This document shows positions 1,518 to 15,419 of a stretch of DNA of 64,000 nucleotides, in pieces. A program made the translations under genes and the position numbers. The notes beneath the pieces were generated by a model that worked only from the letters and a program-made list of their open reading frames with translations, had not been told where the DNA came from and searched no databases. The stretch comes from a virus. Numbering within the stretch: position 1 is the first letter of the stretch; each line of letters opens with the position of its first letter. The stretch lies in IMG/VR virus record IMGVR_UViG_3300021977_000001. One strand, given 5' to 3'.

Positions 1518-3392
1518 TTAGCGGTTCCACAGGCTGCCTGCGTTACGTGCACCGTAACCCATGCCAGAACCACCCCAGTTAGAGCCGCCTTGCTGGAAGA
1601 CTGCACCACCGGCGTTTTGACCAATACCCATACCAACAGCAGACGTATTGCCACGAATGGCACCCATGTCGTTACCGTAGATACCCTCAGGGCGGATCTT
1701 AAGTCCAGCTTCTGCACATGCCGTCGCAAGCGCTTCAATGAACTTAGGATTAAACGTAACACGACGCGCGTAACCTGTAATAGATACAGTATCACCTAAT
1801 GTAGCTTCGATGATTTTAGCACGCTCTGCCAGACGTAGTTCTTGAGGACGGTCAGTCTGGTCGTAAGTGTTACCGAATGCTTCAACGATACCTAGATCTT
1901 TATCACCGTAGATGTTAAGCATCGCTAGGTAATCAAGGTCGCGGATATCACGAGGCGTGTTGTTCTCATCTAGGTAAGTACCTAGGTGGATACGAGTAAT
2001 TTCGCTAGATAGCGGTGCAGAGCCATCGTAGTGGCGGCTAAATGCACCACCGGTCAATGTATCTGCTGCTTGGAACAATACTTGGTTAGCCTTAGTGTTG
2101 CCAGTGGCAGCAGCAAGGAACGTTTCTTGTAACCAGCTAAGATCACCTGTTTCTGGGATATCCCAAGAGAACAATACTTCATTGTACATGCTGCGCTGTA
2201 CAAGCTCAAACAAGCTTTGGTCTGAGAACGAGTCGCTCTTAGTTGTAATACGACCGAACTCGCCGTTGCCCGCGAAGTCTACTTCAAAGCCTAGTGCACC
2301 GATGTCATGAAGATCACCTTTAGACGCACCATAAACTGGCTTGAAGCACTTAACCCATGCGTGGTGCTGAGTTGCTAGTACTGAAGTAGATAGACCTAAC
2401 AATTCAAGCTCAAGCGTGTTTACGCTAAGGCCTGATGTTACGCCAGTCATGACTAGACGCGGTACGTATTGACGATGATCAACAGGCTGGCCGTATGCCA
2501 TTTGCTGTTGCTGACGTGGTACGTACGTTAGGTCCATATAACCATCAACTGTAGTCAATGGAATAGTTTGCTTAGCAGATACTGCTTCACCTGTCTGCAT
2601 GATACCGCGCAGCGAGATAGATAGATCAGAACGTACGGTTTGACCTGCTGCAGTTTGCGTATCACCTGGATTGTAACGAAGCTGCGCAGCTAACACGTCA
2701 CCTGTGTTGATATCTGCTACAGTGATAGCGTTGCTGTTGTCACCGTTTAGCTTAAGGATAGTTGTGTAACATGCTGTGATACCGAAGTATAGCAGGCTAC
2801 GAATCTCTTTCTCGCTGTCAGCAGTAAGATGCTTAGGAATAACGTTAGCACCAACATCTACGTAAGTACGTTCAGTACCGTACTTGCTACGTAGGTGCAT
2901 GTTAACCTGCTCCCACATGTTGTCATCGTACACATCGCCAGCTACAGTTTTGATGTTAACTTGCTGACCTGCGATGTTAGGTACACGATCAGCCAGGCCG
3001 TCGCCAGAACCTTCTACGATGTACGTGTAGCATGCTACATATTCGTTAAATGGGAACTGTAATACAATTACAGATAGCGCTAATGAATGGCTGTCACCGT
3101 CCATTGGTTCAATGGTCACTTTCTCAAGTACACCGTTACGCTCTGAAGATAGGATCTTACGTAACGTTTGCGTTAGCTCACCAGTGATTTCGCCTGCAGT
3201 GCTACGCGTCATTGGGTTGCTAAAGATTGAGTTTAGACCGGCTAGGGTTTTTGGACCTTCCACTTTTCTTCCTCGAGTTTGTTGGTTTGTCGGTTGGGCT
3301 TGTGCCTGCGCACTTGCTGCGCCTGACTCTTTCATTGCATCTGCCATAGCAGGGTTAGAAGGAGTAGACTTGTTATCTTTATTTACAGCCAT
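1518..3392 (-). CDS. chmA: Chimallin, major phage nuclear shell protein
   Basis: 624 aa with a Q/A-rich disordered N-terminus. Motifs DLHDIGALG, RDIRDLDYLAMLN and TGYARRVTFNPKFIEALATACAEAGL match remembered chimallin motifs (DMKDIGALG, RDRRDLDNLAALN, TGKAERCTYNAKFIEAL). Synteny with the nvRNAP beta' gene. Confidence 0.92.
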   Translation of the reverse strand: MAVNKDNKSTPSNPAMADAMKESGAASAQAQAQPTNQQTRGRKVEGPKTLAGLNSIFSNPMTRSTAGEITGELTQTLRKILSSERNGVLEKVTIEPMDGDSHSLALSVIVLQFPFNEYVACYTYIVEGSGDGLADRVPNIAGQQVNIKTVAGDVYDDNMWEQVNMHLRSKYGTERTYVDVGANVIPKHLTADSEKEIRSLLYFGITACYTTILKLNGDNSNAITVADINTGDVLAAQLRYNPGDTQTAAGQTVRSDLSISLRGIMQTGEAVSAKQTIPLTTVDGYMDLTYVPRQQQQMAYGQPVDHRQYVPRLVMTGVTSGLSVNTLELELLGLSTSVLATQHHAWVKCFKPVYGASKGDLHDIGALGFEVDFAGNGEFGRITTKSDSFSDQSLFELVQRSMYNEVLFSWDIPETGDLSWLQETFLAAATGNTKANQVLFQAADTLTGGAFSRHYDGSAPLSSEITRIHLGTYLDENNTPRDIRDLDYLAMLNIYGDKDLGIVEAFGNTYDQTDRPQELRLAERAKIIEATLGDTVSITGYARRVTFNPKFIEALATACAEAGLKIRPEGIYGNDMGAIRGNTSAVGMGIGQNAGGAVFQQGGSNWGGSGMGYGARNAGSLWNR

Positions 3393-8690: not shown

Positions 8691-9038
8691 CTACTCTAAT
8701 TCTAGAAATAACGTATCATTATGCGTACAGATATAATGATACGTTGGTTTAAATCTAAGGGCGTGATTATGGTAGGTTTTAAGTTCTTTACAGAATGCGT
8801 CAAAATAAGGCATTGCTGCTTGACTTATAACCGGGAACTCATATTCTGTTTCAAAGTATTTACTTAGCTCCGTTGAGTCGACGCTCGCGTCATGCTTATA
8901 CATAGTAAGCACTTCTGCGGTTAGGGTGTCTTGGGTTACCGTGATTTGTCTTTTTGCTTCATAACGCCATACTGCTATCATAACGTCATAAATGGACTGT
9001 AATTTACTACAGTCCAATAAAAGTATTTTACTCGTCAA
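8691..9038 (-). CDS. Small protein 7 of the phuZ-pol tandem array
   Basis: 115 aa; KILLLD ... HNDTLFLEL. Confidence 0.75.
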   Translation of the reverse strand: MTSKILLLDCSKLQSIYDVMIAVWRYEAKRQITVTQDTLTAEVLTMYKHDASVDSTELSKYFETEYEFPVISQAAMPYFDAFCKELKTYHNHALRFKPTYHYICTHNDTLFLELE

Positions 9039-9399
9039 GATGATGCACCTCGATGACTAACGTCGGGAAACTAACGCATACGTAATTTAACAGCGGGCGA
9101 TTAGCCAGGGCGTTTATAATACGTCCTAGGCTTACGTCCACAGCCTCATACGTCTCCATTATAATATCATTAACATAATGATACAACGTCTCCTGCACCT
9201 CACTCTTACCTACACTCAACCCCATCCTACTAGCTACATATTCCACTACCTGCTCAACAGTGTTAACATCTAATCTATCATTGTCGGTATACTGATCTAT
9301 CCATAGCGCTACAGCGGCCTCTATGATGTCTGCAGGCGTTAACGAAGCCTCGGGCGGATATGGTGGTTTGTCTAATGGTAAATCTACTAATAGCTTCAT
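9028..9399 (-). CDS. Small protein 6 of the phuZ-pol tandem array
   Basis: 123 aa; KLLVDL ... FPTLVIEV. Confidence 0.75.
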   Translation of the reverse strand: MKLLVDLPLDKPPYPPEASLTPADIIEAAVALWIDQYTDNDRLDVNTVEQVVEYVASRMGLSVGKSEVQETLYHYVNDIIMETYEAVDVSLGRIINALANRPLLNYVCVSFPTLVIEVHHLDE

Positions 9400-9412
9400 A
9401 CAGTGCCTTTTA

Positions 9413-9826
9413 CTATTGGTACTTGTATATTACAGTACCGTCATTCATAACTTCCACGTCTATCAACTCTACGTTAGGCATACGGCGTTGTAAGTTATCT
9501 ACGATGCGGGTAATAGGCCATGCTATAGCTAATGATAAATTAATCACGTGTGTTAATGCGTTATAATTCATCATACCTACACCGTCTTCATCGTAATTGT
9601 CAAAGATGGTATATAACTCCCCTTCTACATGATCCTTGACTTTAACCGCATCGAACTGCGTAGTTAGCGCTGAAGAAGCGGCAAGTAATACTAAATCATG
9701 TACATTAAGTTTAAAGGCTTCCATTGCCTTAATATCATCATGGGTGGTCTTTAACATATACTGTCCCGCATCTACGATGAAGTACTGTTCATCTGGACCA
9801 CTAGCTACATTCCACATAAAGGTCAT
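9413..9826 (-). CDS. Small protein 5 of the phuZ-pol tandem array
   Basis: 137 aa; QYFIVD ... NDGTVIYKY. Confidence 0.75.
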   Translation of the reverse strand: MTFMWNVASGPDEQYFIVDAGQYMLKTTHDDIKAMEAFKLNVHDLVLLAASSALTTQFDAVKVKDHVEGELYTIFDNYDEDGVGMMNYNALTHVINLSLAIAWPITRIVDNLQRRMPNVELIDVEVMNDGTVIYKYQ

Positions 9827-10184
9827 CTCCTATACATCTAGCTACTACTAGATGCGTAAAAGGATGTTGTTGATAAAATGAAAGTATAGTAGGATAGAGA
9901 CGTTTATAGATCTTTAACCCTATACTACATACGTCATCAACATCTTCCAAGGTATAGTCTTTTCTATGTTGTTCATTATAACTACTAAGCGCACGGTAAA
10001 GTAACCGTCTATCTAAATCGGTAGCTGACTGATCATGGTAGTATGTTTCAATGTTAGTCAATGCAGATATAGTCAGACTTAATAACTCATCTAACCTGAG
10101 GTTATACGTTTCTAACGACCCATTTAAGTGATTGTTATTACTTCGTATATCCCCAATGTCTAGAATTAAATAGCGTACTGCCAT
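9801..10184 (-). CDS. Small protein 4 of the phuZ-pol tandem array
   Basis: 127 aa; RYLILD ... GDDLYVEC. Confidence 0.75.
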   Translation of the reverse strand: MAVRYLILDIGDIRSNNNHLNGSLETYNLRLDELLSLTISALTNIETYYHDQSATDLDRRLLYRALSSYNEQHRKDYTLEDVDDVCSIGLKIYKRLYPTILSFYQQHPFTHLVVARCIGDDLYVECS

Positions 10185-10186
10185 GG

Positions 10187-10630
10187 TTAACTTTCCATTT
10201 GTTTGATTAACGCTTCAAGCTCTTGGTTACGCGCACGTAGCTGATTTAGCTCAACGTCACGACAATCACCATTATCTACGATACGATACTCCAACGGATC
10301 ATTCATCTTCTCATACTCGTAATGATGGCTAGCCATCTTGTCTGCACCAAGCAGCCGTGTTATGGTAGTATACATAGTACGGCGGATATCCTGCTTAAGT
10401 GCCTCTCTGATGTCAGCAATAGGACACAGACCCTCTAGCCACACCTCTGTGATATCCTCACCTACCATGTCTCGATGTTGTTCACCAAGTAGAAGTACTT
10501 CTAATTCGTAGTCGATTACTCTAGAATAATCTAAACACAGTAAATAAGCCCCGCCTACTACTGGTTCTAAATAATTAAAACATAGTGAATGTATAGCATC
10601 AAAGCTAACAAGAATAGATACTGGTTTCAC
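10187..10630 (-). CDS. Small protein 3 of the phuZ-pol tandem array
   Basis: 147 aa, GTG start; VSILVS ... NDPLEYRIV, plus a short coiled-coil tail. Confidence 0.72.
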   Translation of the reverse strand: MKPVSILVSFDAIHSLCFNYLEPVVGGAYLLCLDYSRVIDYELEVLLLGEQHRDMVGEDITEVWLEGLCPIADIREALKQDIRRTMYTTITRLLGADKMASHHYEYEKMNDPLEYRIVDNGDCRDVELNQLRARNQELEALIKQMES

Positions 10631-10634
10631 TGGT

Positions 10635-11228
10635 TCACCCTGTTAGATTAAGGTCTTTATCAATGATGAGTCTTAATACGTCATGCGTTAACTCGTCATG
10701 TCTTGCTGTTAGCTGCGCTTTTAGATCGTCACGCGTGGTCGCATTAGCTCGATGATTAGGGAGCTGCTGTTCTTGGTCTTTATATTGTTCCGATAACAAA
10801 GCCTGTAAACGTTCTTGGAAACTTAACGCGGTAGGATCTGAATGGTTGCCTAAGTTTTCTAAGACAATATCATCGTAGCTCTTGGTCACATTCCAAACAT
10901 CGTCAGTACGTAGAGGCACATAGCGTTGAAGTATATCGGTTAACCTTGCATCGATAGGGTCTATGCAGTTTTGATAGAACCTAGATGCAAAGACTGCATG
11001 CGTGGTCATCCAGGGATATAGCTGCTCTAATAGATCAGTCGTGGTGTCTACGCTGGGTGCCCAGTTAAAGGCATGACTCATCGCGTCATCGATTAGATGA
11101 TGTATAATCATCCTAGCGTCGTTACGCTTGACCGGGTTAGGGCGGTCAACGCTGTAAAAGAAAAGCGCTGATGTATTGACCAGGTTTTCTATAAACTCAT
11201 GTAAAGGGAGTATTATTTTTAGTGCCAT
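10635..11228 (-). CDS. Small protein 2 of the phuZ-pol tandem array
   Basis: 197 aa; KIILPL ... YDDIVLEN, plus a helical C-terminal extension. Confidence 0.75.
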   Translation of the reverse strand: MALKIILPLHEFIENLVNTSALFFYSVDRPNPVKRNDARMIIHHLIDDAMSHAFNWAPSVDTTTDLLEQLYPWMTTHAVFASRFYQNCIDPIDARLTDILQRYVPLRTDDVWNVTKSYDDIVLENLGNHSDPTALSFQERLQALLSEQYKDQEQQLPNHRANATTRDDLKAQLTARHDELTHDVLRLIIDKDLNLTG

Positions 11229-11242
11229 GGAGTTGGGTCCTT

Positions 11243-11599
11243 TTAGGCATTAACTATCAGTGTCTCATTTTTAATAATGGTTTTAACTGACGCATCGGGA
11301 TGCCATTGATTACTTACTGCACGGTATAGCTGTTTATCAACTAAACCTTTTATTACATCAGGTAAGCTGTTAAGGAAGATAACAGCACCTATAGGCATGT
11401 TGCCTTCTATCGGGTTGTCGTGATGAAGTACACCCATTGTTGCTAGTCTTTCGGAAAACCACTGATTTAACACAGCATCGATGTCGACGGTTGGATTACC
11501 TGCTAAGTGTTTAGATAGTTCTTCAATGAATGGTTTAGCGATATCGCGGGCGGTTGCGATATCAAATAGATAGTATTTAGGGGTTGTCATTATTACCAC
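11243..11599 (-). CDS. Small protein 1 of the phuZ-pol tandem array
   Basis: 118 aa; KYYLFD ... KNETLIVNA. Confidence 0.75.
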   Translation of the reverse strand: MVIMTTPKYYLFDIATARDIAKPFIEELSKHLAGNPTVDIDAVLNQWFSERLATMGVLHHDNPIEGNMPIGAVIFLNSLPDVIKGLVDKQLYRAVSNQWHPDASVKTIIKNETLIVNA

Positions 11600-11631
11600 C
11601 TTGTATACGAATTAGTGAGTAGTCTATACAG

Positions 11632-12857: not shown

Positions 12858-13643
12858 ATGAGCCCCATTCAAAAAGCCGTTCAGGATATTACGTTTAAAA
12901 TCCCACAAGAAATACTGAGGCAAGTCTTTATAGACAAACGGTTTAGCACTGTAAACTACCCTGTCTCTATTGAATCTCAAATTATCGCTAAAGTCGTACG
13001 GCCACGTGTATTAGTTGACTGTAACCTAGTAGGCGGGATGCAGGTCGAACTGTCTTTATCAAGTGCTAAGAAAACATACGATGATGGAAGCCATCAGATC
13101 TACGTTATACCTAAAACCGCCACCATGGGTCGAAGTATTATCTCCGTAATGAGTATTGGGTTTAATGAGAATGAGGCTAGTAGTACGTTCCAGACAACAT
13201 CTTCATTAATCCGTGAGTCAATGAACGTTATAGATGCGGTCAACGGATACGAGACAAACTCTACAGCTAGCGTGTCGCTAATTGAAGAAAACACCATACA
13301 CGTAGAATCTGAAAGTGTGCTTAGTAGTAACGCTACATTGCGTTGTATTGTAAGCAACGACCCGGACATGCAGAATCTAAACCCTAGAACCATTCCTGCA
13401 TTTACTAAACTGGTTGAGTATGCGGTTAAAAGCTACATATACAATCAGTCTATAATTAACATTGATACAGCACGTTTGCATGGTGGTCAGACGTTAGGTG
13501 TGTATCGTGACATGGTAGAAAGCTACGCCGACGCTGAAGAGCTTTATGTAGAATATAGAGATACGCGTTGGAAAAAGATAGCATTCTGCGACGATAAAGA
13601 ATCCTATTATCGCCACATTAAGTTAACATCATCAGGCGTTTAA
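12858..13643 (+). CDS. Conserved virion structural protein (phiKZ-like)
   Basis: 261 aa, divergent from phuZ. The MSPIQKAVQDITFKIPQEIL start resembles a family I recall from phiKZ-like phages. Its 3' end is duplicated at 14681-14733. Confidence 0.55.
   Translation: MSPIQKAVQDITFKIPQEILRQVFIDKRFSTVNYPVSIESQIIAKVVRPRVLVDCNLVGGMQVELSLSSAKKTYDDGSHQIYVIPKTATMGRSIISVMSIGFNENEASSTFQTTSSLIRESMNVIDAVNGYETNSTASVSLIEENTIHVESESVLSSNATLRCIVSNDPDMQNLNPRTIPAFTKLVEYAVKSYIYNQSIINIDTARLHGGQTLGVYRDMVESYADAEELYVEYRDTRWKKIAFCDDKESYYRHIKLTSSGV
13591..13643 (+). repeat. Copy 1 of a 53-bp recoded duplication (DKESYYRHIKLTSSGV*)
   Basis: 43/53 nt identical to 14681-14733; all differences within the coding frame are synonymous. 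Confidence 0.92.
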
Positions 13644-13646
13644 ACT

Positions 13647-13676
13647 AAGTAGGTCTTCGGACCTACTTTTTATACG
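13647..13676 (+). terminator. Intrinsic terminator with UUCG tetraloop
   Basis: AAGTAGGTC-TTCG-GACCTACTT-TTTATACG. Confidence 0.85.
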
Positions 13677-13724
13677 TTATCTATTTAATACTATGACTTT
13701 ATTTTTAACTAAAGAGTATTACTA

Positions 13725-14687
13725 ATGGGCGCGTATATAGATCTAGAGGGTAAGAGATTTGGTCGATGGCTAGTTGAAAGTAGGACTGATAATAATCGCT
13801 TCGGTCAGATACGATGGGCTTGTGTGTGCGATTGCGGTTCTGTAAAGAAAGTTATTGCAGGGAGTCTACTATCCGGTAAATCAACAAGTTGCGGATGTTA
13901 TCAAAAGGAAAAGATAAGGCATACTAGCCAGGTACACGGGATGTCGGCAGCAAAGGAATATAAATATTACCACGCTATGAAGGGTCGCTGTTACAATCCT
14001 AAAAATATTGACTATTACAATTATGGCGGACGTGGCATTAAAGTGTGTAAGCGGTGGCTTGATAGTTTTGAAAACTTCTTAGAAGATATGGGACCGTGTC
14101 CTAAAGGTTATACACTAGACCGTAAGGATAACGATAAAGATTACAGTCCAGAGAATTGTAGGTGGGCCAGTCGTAAAGAACAGGCTTTAAATAGAAGGAC
14201 TACAAGAACAGTCACCTATCATGGGGTAGAGACTACTTATGTAGAACTGTGTGAAAAGTTTAACATCAGTTTACCCGCTTTAAACTATCGCCTTTCGACA
14301 GGCATGTCTCTAGAAGAAGCATTAAATAAACCCATACAAGTAAGAAAACATACCATCCCAGTTATATGTTTAGATGTTAAAGAAGGGAAATATACAATAT
14401 TTAAAACATATAACGAAGCTGTAACGTTCTTTAATAATAAAGAATCTAGTTTAAGAAGAGCAATTGATTTAAAGAGAATATATCTATCAAAGTATCTAAT
14501 AAAGTATTCTGATGATAGTTCATCCTGGGATCGTTTTACCGGTAATTTCAAAATGACTGATGACGTTGTTATTGAATTAGAGGATGGGGTTTTAATAATC
14601 TTTAACAACATCTGCGAAGGTTTAGAGTATTTGGATAGAAATGATATTGACATAGATAGCTGTAAGATTAAATCACTGATACGATAA
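13725..14687 (+). CDS. HNH homing endonuclease
   Basis: GKRFGRWLV...WACVCDCG...GKSTSCGC, YHAMKGRCYNPKNIDYYNYGGRGIKVCKRWLDSFENFLEDMG and TLDRKDNDKDYSPENCRWA are the classic phage HNH pattern, followed by a probable DNA-binding C-terminus. Confidence 0.92.
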   Translation: MGAYIDLEGKRFGRWLVESRTDNNRFGQIRWACVCDCGSVKKVIAGSLLSGKSTSCGCYQKEKIRHTSQVHGMSAAKEYKYYHAMKGRCYNPKNIDYYNYGGRGIKVCKRWLDSFENFLEDMGPCPKGYTLDRKDNDKDYSPENCRWASRKEQALNRRTTRTVTYHGVETTYVELCEKFNISLPALNYRLSTGMSLEEALNKPIQVRKHTIPVICLDVKEGKYTIFKTYNEAVTFFNNKESSLRRAIDLKRIYLSKYLIKYSDDSSSWDRFTGNFKMTDDVVIELEDGVLIIFNNICEGLEYLDRNDIDIDSCKIKSLIR

Positions 14688-14733
14688 AGAAAGTTATTAC
14701 AGACATATCAAATTAACATCATCAGGCGTTTAG
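14681..14733 (+). repeat. Copy 2 (orphaned, untranslated) of the 53-bp recoded duplication
   Basis: GAT AAA GAA AGT TAT TAC AGA CAT ATC AAA TTA ACA TCA TCA GGC GTT TAG = DKESYYRHIKLTSSGV*. Confidence 0.92.
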
Positions 14734-14743
14734 TGGTTAAAAG

Positions 14744-14810
14744 AAGCAAGGCGGTACCGCCTTGCTTTATGCCGTTACGGCATAAAGCAGAGGCCAATGA
14801 CCTCTGCCTT
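14744..14810. terminator. Back-to-back terminators joined by the palindrome TATGCCGT-T-ACGGCATA
   Basis: AAGCAAGGCG-gtac-CGCCTTGCTT, then TATGCCGTTACGGCATA, then GCAGAGG-loop-CCTCTGC, between convergent genes. Confidence 0.8.
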
Positions 14811-14816
14811 TAAATA

Positions 14817-15419
14817 TCAATGTAGTTGTATCACGCCAGACAAAGGCTGGTTAATATTGCTTCGATGGTTTAGTCTTTCTTTAACATCAAAAGATAACAT
14901 ATCTAACATGGTTGTTAGGAATTGTTGACGTATATGGTCATCTAGCGAGCAGTTGTCAAAGAATAACTGAGCTAGATAGAAAACACCCTTGACATCGGGA
15001 ACCTTCACAGGTTGCTGACCCTGTACAGGTGATCTTGTAAATGTAGCAACGTTGACATCACCTGAGCGAATGTGTAGCTGTGCTCCTTCTGCCACCGCGT
15101 GTAGCGGTTCGGTGGTCGTCAACATTACTAATAAATCGTGACTTTGCTTAAATCCACTATTGATGTGTTCTACTAGATGACTGAACTGAAACTTCTCTTC
15201 AAACACATTGTGATTTGGATGATTAAACATGGTAACGTACATGGGGACTATTTCACCTTTGACATATACAAGTACCATAATGGCATGATTAACATAACTG
15301 TCTGTTTTGTTAAGATGCATTAAATGTTTAATACCCATCCCTTCACCCTGAAATACATCAACTGTATCTTGGGTGTGACATACTCTGACTTCCTGACTAA
15401 TTAATGAATCTAGTTGCAT
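14817..15419 (-). CDS. Hypothetical protein
   Basis: 200-aa ORF, no recognised motif. Confidence 0.7.
   Translation of the reverse strand: MQLDSLISQEVRVCHTQDTVDVFQGEGMGIKHLMHLNKTDSYVNHAIMVLVYVKGEIVPMYVTMFNHPNHNVFEEKFQFSHLVEHINSGFKQSHDLLVMLTTTEPLHAVAEGAQLHIRSGDVNVATFTRSPVQGQQPVKVPDVKGVFYLAQLFFDNCSLDDHIRQQFLTTMLDMLSFDVKERLNHRSNINQPLSGVIQLH

Follow-up and report, generated by a model that had tools for sequence, protein, structure and literature searches.

In the DNA analyzed here, a 64,000-nucleotide (nt) stretch of a viral genome (IMG/VR record IMGVR_UViG_3300021977_000001; referred to as the window), the last 16 codons and the stop of a 261-residue head-to-tail adaptor gene are found twice, once at the end of the gene itself (copy 1) and once at the end of an open reading frame (ORF) for a predicted HNH-family endonuclease (copy 2). 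Which of these two ends is native to the gene, and by what route did the other one reach this locus? Comparison with alleles of related phages suggests that the repeat is probably the trace of a mobile cassette that is located inside the 3′ end of the adaptor gene, where it has replaced the end of the gene and displaced the native one. A tail and terminator carried by the element complete the gene, and the adaptor remains full length without an intron or intein. The original last 17 codons of the recipient gene now lie on the far side of the endonuclease gene, which takes its stop codon from them.

Architecture of the repeat

The alignment of the two copies was free of gaps and agreed with the repeat described in the initial annotation, which had been made from the letters of the window alone. 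The copies differ at 10 of 53 nt (TCC/AGT, 3 nt; TAT/TAC; CGC/AGA, 2 nt; CAC/CAT; ATT/ATC; AAG/AAA; and TAA/TAG), including two switches between six-fold codons (Ser TCC/AGT and Arg CGC/AGA). All ten differences are silent in the frame of the adaptor gene, which is far from the chance expectation, and both copies encode the same last 16 residues followed by a stop. As had also been noted at the outset, the 320-residue ORF has no stop of its own. Its last codon, CGA (14682–14684), and the TAA that follows (14685–14687) fall within copy 2, in a frame one base apart from that of the tail (tail +1). Copy 2 lies outside the reading frame of the adaptor gene, and an in-frame stop is located just upstream of it.

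Folding confirmed that copy 1 is followed by a terminator in which a 9-bp stem is closed by a UUCG loop and precedes a U run. Copy 2 is followed by a different terminator of two hairpins, the second of which is a palindrome of the motif TATGCCG. This motif had been called typical of the genome, and it occurs 15 times in the window compared with 6.85 expected occurrences, a count that was reached in none of 100 shuffles. A scan with consensus promoters and terminators missed both hairpins, which are clear on folding, and yielded no credible promoter for the ORF. A motif in the start region of the ORF was not repeated in the window beyond chance.

Filled and empty alleles of the locus

Contigs that carry the locus were collected by viral and metagenome scans, from members of protein clusters, and by exact-protein look-ups, which together gave dozens of contigs from marine samples, belonging to four phage lineages. 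The useful haplotypes came from the cluster members and the exact-protein look-ups, and a protein-pattern scan of metagenomes added few loci. Contigs with at least 98% amino acid identity were assigned to the lineage of the window. Within this lineage, contigs L108–L113 lack the ORF, and their flanks are ∼99% identical to the window. The adaptor gene of these empty alleles ends in the copy-2 spelling with a TAG stop and is directly followed by the hairpin that in the window follows copy 2, which is the gene end that the initial annotation had predicted for relatives without the endonuclease. Copy 2 of sister contigs L005, L006, L119, and L120 is identical to this empty-allele tail. In the window, as in L123 and L124, copy 2 and the base after its stop differ from the empty allele at 3 nt. 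Copy 1 differs from the native tail of the empty relatives at 10–14 of 52 nt.

Divergence from the empty alleles begins 22 nt upstream of copy 1, at position 13569. The insert corresponds to positions 13569–14680 of the window (∼1.1 kb) and consists of the replacement gene end, the UUCG terminator, a spacer, and the endonuclease gene (Table 1). Its right edge lies inside codon 245 of the adaptor gene, at a distance of 17 codons from the gene end. The replacement end had been interpreted as a synonymously recoded tail. This holds for the copy 1 region, in which only silent changes relative to the empty alleles are found, but not for the 22 nt upstream, which change four residues (L238W, L242A, M243F, and M244C) and convert the MM pair beside the junction to FC. 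The replacement end is a diverged natural allele that is carried by the element, not a purely synonymous recoding.

The same arrangement was observed in a lineage in which the body of the adaptor gene is 73% identical to the window at the nt level (∼27% diverged). Here, the filled contig L017 and the empty contig L018 are 99–100% identical over ∼2.5 kb on the left side and 1.9 kb on the right side. The copy behind the ORF of L017 is 100% identical to the native tail of L018 from the junction onward, and the in-gene tail is foreign from 8 nt before the junction. The endonuclease of L017 is 65% identical to that of the window, and the junction is located inside codon 245 in both cassettes. The stop that is borrowed from the native end is TAA in the window ORF and TGA, one codon earlier, in the L017 ORF. 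A match of the bases upstream of copy 2 to the MM allele (shared CTGAT) was dismissed as coincidental, as L017 indicates that these bases encode the conserved C-terminus of the endonuclease. In the lineage of filled contig L008, the tail of the empty contigs L127–L132 differs from copy 2 at 7 nt and from copy 1 at 15 nt.

Both forms can be found in a single sample. In the marine DNA run X7, the filled form has a depth of ∼7–11, and a contig that skips positions 13569–14680, with a depth of 2.8, carries exactly the 22 empty-type letters. This run also holds a small contig in which the tail spellings are swapped (see below). These comparisons show where the insert lies and what it contains, that copy 2 is native and copy 1 foreign, and that the locus is polymorphic for the presence of the insert and has chimeric empty alleles. 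The insertion inside the gene with displacement of the native end, as proposed in the initial annotation, is in agreement with the tails of L108–L113 and L018, which match copy 2 and not copy 1.

In all ten of the filled contigs that were compared, which represent four haplotype types, the two tails of a genome are of opposite type. The tails within each of these contigs differ at 10–16 of 52 nt and share uninterrupted identity over at most 7–20 nt, depending on the contig. That the tails are kept unlike in every filled contig fits selection against repeats that are alike enough to delete the element.

Table 1. Coordinates of the features at the adaptor–endonuclease locus of the window
Feature	Position	Strand	Remarks
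Adaptor gene	12858–13643	+	261 amino acids, DUF7484; complete; length as in insert-free relatives
Replacement 3′ end (element-borne)	13569–13643	+	Codons 238–261 and TAA; includes copy 1; based on alignment to empty allele L108
Copy 1	13591–13643	+	Final 16 residues and stop of the 261-residue gene
UUCG-loop terminator hairpin, then U run	13647–13668	+	Element-borne; fold −12.8 kcal/mol, z −4.4
Spacer before endonuclease gene	13669–13724	+	Purine-rich ribosome-binding stretch at 13711–13716
Endonuclease ORF, 320 amino acids	13725–14687	+	Cys4 zinc module (N-terminal), predicted nuclease core, putative helix-turn-helix (HTH)/NUMOD-like DNA-binding modules
Copy 2, displaced native 3′ end of adaptor gene	14681–14733	+	Without start codon
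Native adaptor-gene terminator	14743–14783	+	11-bp hairpin and TATGCCG palindrome hairpin; fold z −4.3
Convergent gene, 200 amino acids	14817–15419	−	Shares the terminator at 14743–14783 with the adaptor gene

Spread of the cassette between lineages

When the window and L008 are aligned, the terminator, spacer, and ORF are 91–96% identical at the nt level, and the phage tubulin gene (phuZ), the body of the adaptor gene, and the downstream gene are 69–78% identical. Both tail copies are at this background level (75–80%). The contrast between the cassette (91–96%) and its flanks (69–78%) is the pattern of horizontal movement and, at the level of the aligned contigs, shows that the cassette spreads between lineages. 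The terminator together with the spacer is 96–97% identical between lineages, and several blocks of the spacer recur in the L017 cassette. In a direct comparison of the window spacer with positions 2612–2673 of L017, several blocks are kept, including TATGAC, although the two cassettes are ∼65% identical overall. The spacer may hold a promoter of the element's own or a translational control region.

The stop, spacer, and UUCG hairpin of the cassette are letter-for-letter the native terminator of a lineage without the endonuclease gene (L114 and L116–L118). This shared terminator points to a genome type in which the endonuclease gene may once have been located behind an intact gene.

The endonuclease

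The 320-residue ORF matched the PHROG family phrog_374, annotated as 'HNH endonuclease', with an E-value of 1e-72. Matches below the cut-off were obtained for HNH_3 (E-value 0.032), the C-terminus of TIGR01453 (4e-4), which is the DNA-binding part of group I intron endonucleases, and HTH_24, and NUMOD1 was matched weakly (0.023) in the L017 copy. A search of PDB sequences with the ORF gave nothing usable. An AlphaFold model that was built on 40 relatives had a mean predicted local distance difference test (pLDDT) score of 86, and its best Foldseek match was I-HmuI (1u3e; E-value 1e-3, low template modeling score). Residues 205–265 superpose on the C-terminal DNA-binding domain of I-HmuI (Z 6.5, root-mean-square deviation 3.2, 58 residues) and on the DNA-binding domain of I-TevI (Z 5.5), both middling scores. 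The family has 262 relatives in viral contigs. A family alignment revealed a Cys4 zinc module (residues 33–58) and residues Asn144 and Asn156, which do not vary, as well as His71 and Arg133, which hardly vary. The protein is likely a member of the HNH family, with a predicted chemistry.

Comparison with the L008 copy revealed 23 non-synonymous and 52 synonymous codons, which indicates that the ORF is under purifying selection, as judged from codon changes. The ORF is intact in every filled contig that was translated or had called genes, and both a start codon and a ribosome-binding site of its own are present. Among the contigs from RNA runs, one of the L007 type spans the adaptor gene, the terminator, and the start of the ORF, and another lies within the ORF (14160–14354). 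The RNA runs were kept as contigs only and may contain carried-over DNA, so these contigs are no proof of expression.

The initial annotation had described the invasion of the gene as intron-free. In agreement with this, no Rfam family, and hence no intron model, was matched at an E-value of up to 1 in positions 13300–15000. The adaptor gene is continuous and complete in the DNA, which argues against a group I intron, and it closes with TAA and a terminator ahead of the ORF, which argues against an intein.

A paralogous gene for an endonuclease-like protein of 376 residues is located ∼77 kb away in the same phage (L002, positions 985–2115; record G001), beside genes that resemble tail-fiber genes. 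The paralog has two Cys4 zinc modules and a related C-terminal domain. Its match to the CapR zinc-finger domain, which has been described as a DNA-binding module of phage homing endonucleases (PMC10448857), is weak (E-value 4e-4, below the cut-off).

Proposed mechanism of insertion

We propose that, in a mixed infection, the predicted endonuclease would break the empty allele within ∼8–22 nt 5′ of codon 245. The break is placed in this interval because only there is the sequence of the recipient always replaced. It would be repaired from the cassette-bearing genome, with the gene body as the left arm and the native tail with the downstream DNA as the right arm. The tail of the element, which differs from the target at 12 of the 22 nt beside the junction and at ∼10–16 of the 52 nt that follow, would stem from a diverged phage lineage. 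In a filled genome, the site of cleavage would be lost through the MM-to-FC patch and possibly also through the silent changes, a protective effect that we infer from the boundary between recipient and donor sequence. The unlike tails would in turn hinder the recombination that would delete the element. The homology of the tails is shared by both broken ends, and repair could therefore also end without the endonuclease gene, which would give empty alleles with the replacement spelling.

Alleles of this kind are found. In contig L126, which lacks the endonuclease gene, the FC patch and the spelling of copy 1 lead directly into the TAG stop and hairpin of copy 2. The initial annotation had named relatives that lack the endonuclease but carry the copy-1 sequence, with no sign of insertion, as evidence against an insertion. 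The spelling in L126 is that of copy 1, but its junction to the TAG and hairpin of copy 2 and its empty-type background (1 of 2511 nt of the left flank differs from the empty L108) are those of a chimera, and L126 is better read as a product left over from homing or from loss of the element than as evidence against insertion. Most simply, repair would have copied the replacement end and annealed to the tail of the recipient before reaching the endonuclease gene, an outcome that is possible because both sides share tail homology. Contig L009, from the lineage of L017 and L018, has a chimeric tail, lacks the endonuclease gene, and keeps the replacement end, and L104 has kept a small patch of the replacement spelling. 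L126 and L009 have the look of alleles of natural origin that are free of the element and would be expected to resist it. In models of self-eliminating gene drives, loss through flanking repeats likewise leaves a drive-resistant allele (PMC7776940).

A haplotype with swapped tails

In a common sister haplotype (L007, L102, L103, and L105–L107), the tail spellings are in the opposite order to that in the window. The working gene of this L007 type has the empty-type sequence, including the MM site, and the copy behind the ORF has the copy-1 spelling of the window. The stops stay tied to position, with TAA before the UUCG hairpin and TAG before the native hairpin. The endonuclease genes of L007 and the window differ in 61 codons, all but one within residues 2–152. 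The 32 non-synonymous codons are all within residues 3–150, and the outlier, codon 318, is silent. The N-terminal 152 residues, which contain all 32 residue differences, correspond to the zinc module and nuclease core. At the nt level, the two ORFs share 99.8% identity over their 3′ half, and the C-terminal half of the protein is identical. As the tails of the L007 type are swapped, silent differences alone cannot be what protects the genome.

This haplotype bears on the direction of the exchange. If copy 1 were native, the element would consist of the terminator, the endonuclease gene, and a trailing tail, and it would have been inserted after the stop of the gene. Such an order would account for the L007 type, in which the in-gene tail equals the empty allele, including MM, and the other spelling is found behind the endonuclease. 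It would also be consistent with the comparison of the window and L008, in which both tails are at background divergence and only the terminator, spacer, and ORF are highly similar. However, the empty relatives of both the window haplotype and L017 match copy 2 and its hairpin, not copy 1, and the stops remain bound to their positions even where the interior spelling is swapped. L126, which is empty and has the copy-1 spelling, can moreover serve as the recipient that produces the L007 arrangement when the element replaces the gene end. Current sampling also suggests that the empty state that matches copy 2 is ancestral in the lineages of the window and L017/L018. We therefore regard the reversed order as very unlikely.

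With a cassette that replaces the gene end, the L007 haplotype would be an element with an MM tail that entered an L126-type genome. The window type would then carry an FC-type tail and displace an MM-type tail, and the L007 type would carry the MM-type and displace the FC-type. If both haplotypes arose by homing, then each enzyme should spare its own in-gene allele and cut the other, i.e. the two enzymes should have reciprocally diverged specificities. Two element variants, each aimed at the protected allele of the other, might thus coexist in one population, a possibility that we consider doubtful. If it were true, the locus, together with the resistant alleles L126 and L009, would be a natural record of drive, resistance, and counter-drive. 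Alternatively, the L007 haplotype could result from successive recombination events with an unchanged specificity or could reflect an inactive variant of the enzyme.

Weighing homing against other explanations

Several points weigh against an active element that spares its own gene end. The L007 haplotype fits this explanation poorly, and one enzyme specificity for the MM site cannot explain every filled genome. The FC pair is also found in some alleles without the endonuclease gene (L127–L132 and L009), with IAFM in more distant homologs, and FC may be an old natural variant rather than the mark of a past invasion. Both the predicted cut site and the presumed protection by the replacement spelling are deduced from the boundaries between recipient and donor sequence. 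The ORF reached no Pfam or NCBIfam cut-off. In our reading of the family alignment, compared with the HNH_3 motif, Arg133 stands where the first catalytic His is usually found in HNH proteins, and the nearly invariant His71 is located elsewhere.

The absence of an evident canonical first His and of a match above a curated family threshold would also be expected if no homing took place, and the locus were a recombination-prone spot at which ordinary phage recombination and deletion rearrange a partial tandem duplication and an HNH-like gene that is inactive or has been domesticated. The repeats do recombine here, as the chimeric tails of L009, L104, and L126 attest. Such shuffling is nonetheless an improbable explanation for a junction that is identical across lineages with flanks that are 22–31% diverged and for a cassette that is 91–96% identical across the same lineages. 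The intact ORF, which is under purifying selection in the filled contigs that were translated or had called genes, and the clustering of sequence differences exactly at the junction complete what would be the classical marks of an active homing element.

A further explanation is that copy 2 is kept because it is functional, either through a +1 frameshift onto the endonuclease at CGA-TAA or as a regulatory RNA element. The tail frame is indeed +1 relative to the endonuclease frame, and variants of copy 2 are almost exclusively silent in the tail frame (10 silent versus 1 replacement in L008). This silent pattern is explained by fresh inheritance from the working tails of empty genomes, to which copy 2 can be identical, and no slippery site or Rfam match was found at the locus. 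A stop in the tail frame lies directly upstream, and the L017 ORF ends on a different stop, TGA, one codon earlier. The frameshift fusion of the endonuclease to a tail peptide was rejected on the grounds of this upstream stop, the other stop in L017, and the absent slippery site, and a function of copy 2 is altogether extremely unlikely.

Relation to known mobile endonuclease genes

The closest parallel to this layout, as the initial annotation had pointed out, is found in fungal mitochondria. There, mobile endonuclease ORFs (mORFs) make 'gene hybrids', as described for atp6 of Allomyces macrogynus and for atp6, atp9, cox2, and nad3 of Glomus (PMC3630166), and partial C-terminal duplications of atp6 and cob are located beside endonuclease ORFs in Endoconidiophora (PMC6279837). 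In both settings, an endonuclease ORF has been inserted into a conserved gene close to its 3′ end, and the element contributes a foreign C-terminus in frame. The native C-terminus now lies further downstream and resembles the gene end of element-free relatives much more closely than the inserted C-terminus does. Most of the differences are synonymous in both, and horizontal transfer has been inferred. The fungal enzymes are LAGLIDADG or GIY-YIG proteins that are fused in phase to the host gene, whereas the enzyme here is of the HNH family and its ORF is separate, with an upstream terminator and its own ribosome-binding site. The host here is a nucleus-forming jumbo phage, and the population data add empty alleles with the replacement end and a swapped-tail haplotype to what the fungal cases provide. 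The searchable literature, which is incomplete, yielded no phage paper on an endonuclease insertion at which the end of a gene is duplicated or replaced, and the layout was encountered only for fungal mitochondria.

SegF, SegG, and MobE of T-even phages are free-standing, intronless homing endonucleases that are located between genes and cut at a distance. The locus described here resembles them as a free-standing endonuclease gene of a lytic phage whose presence varies among close relatives. In the T-even systems, the endonuclease-less allele of a neighboring conserved gene is cleaved and flanking markers are co-converted, which is predicted here as well. In contrast to the present locus with its element-borne gene end, the Seg and Mob systems are not known to duplicate or replace any part of their target genes.

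In the chimallivirus PhiPA3, gp210 is an intron-encoded HNH endonuclease (PMC11620839; reviewed in PMC12908238). It shares with the present case an HNH homing endonuclease, a nucleus-forming phage, an essential conserved gene, and co-infecting relatives, with the activity being predicted for the ORF studied here. For gp210, the gene is saved by self-splicing of a group I intron, whereas here a spare gene end serves this purpose, and no intron was detected.

Engineered 'rescue' homing drives carry a recoded gene end that is placed inside a needed gene and spared by the nuclease. The cassette is similar to these and to self-eliminating drives (PMC7776940 for the latter) in that it has a recoded functional part, and its loss through flanking repeats would leave a resistant, drive-free allele. 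In contrast to synthetic Cas9 drives in diploid animals, the element here is natural, protein-guided, and viral. Public metagenome contigs cover the filled, empty, replacement-end-only, and tail-swapped alleles of the locus, and the rise, resistance, and loss of a drive, as modeled for synthetic rescue gene drives, can be studied here in nature.

Besides introns and inteins, a spare gene end would be a third means by which a homing endonuclease can occupy coding sequence in an essential structural gene of a phage. Such cassettes leave unannotated pseudo-tails and hybrid genes. They also create sharp local mosaic boundaries in conserved genes and can mislead phylogenies that are based on those genes. 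When 76 further loci of the endonuclease family were screened, the layout was found again in L076 and L077 and perhaps, in mirror image, in L081 (2–3 of 76). The gene-end-replacing layout is probably widespread and overlooked rather than unique.

The cases in this screen are as follows. In the unrelated viral contigs L076 (positions 2257–3350) and L077, a family member with 40% identity extends over the 3′ end of a gene for 88 residues, and a second, ∼55%-identical copy of the last ∼30 residues of that gene is located after the endonuclease. In L081 (positions 690–1300), a 171-residue family member directly precedes a helicase gene, and a copy of a 12-residue N-terminal motif of the helicase is located upstream of the endonuclease. 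This match, a possible mirror-image case, is short, with a score of 62 compared with 43 for the best shuffle.

The adaptor gene and its phage

The adaptor gene, which had been annotated as a virion gene, encodes a protein of the Pfam family PF24302 (DUF7484; E-value 5e-74). A tblastn search identified PHIKZ042 (gp42) of phiKZ as a homolog with 38% identity. The phiKZ protein is a dodecameric head-to-tail adaptor with a C-terminal domain that grips the stopper gp99 (PMC13250141). The adaptor has 261 residues in filled and empty genomes alike, and its last 16 residues are identical. The phage tubulin gene is located just upstream of the adaptor gene on the opposite strand, which fits a nucleus-forming jumbo phage. 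DNA and protein searches of phage collections returned only distant relatives (up to 39% amino acid identity), which were of no help for the comparison of alleles. The nearest record, G001, has the same haplotype as the window.

Several minor features of the surrounding DNA were also observed. Between the window (8800–11600) and L007, an array of small genes upstream of the tubulin gene is ∼10% different, and the next 2 kb are ∼99% identical, with a sharp mosaic boundary near position 11600. In contig L134 (positions 1–2419), the tubulin gene and the start of the adaptor gene are present a second time in inverted orientation, probably as an assembly artefact (a palindromic join). In one NCBI contig, the adaptor gene was called as two pieces of 186 and 51 residues (proteins P0026 and P0027), which may reflect a frameshift or a sequencing error. 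Marine metagenomes from 12 studies contain DNA that is nearly identical to positions 13300–14900 of the window. Their samples include seawater, oysters, the guts of invertebrates, and hydrothermal vents, the last of which may be the source, and the phage appears to be widespread in the sea.

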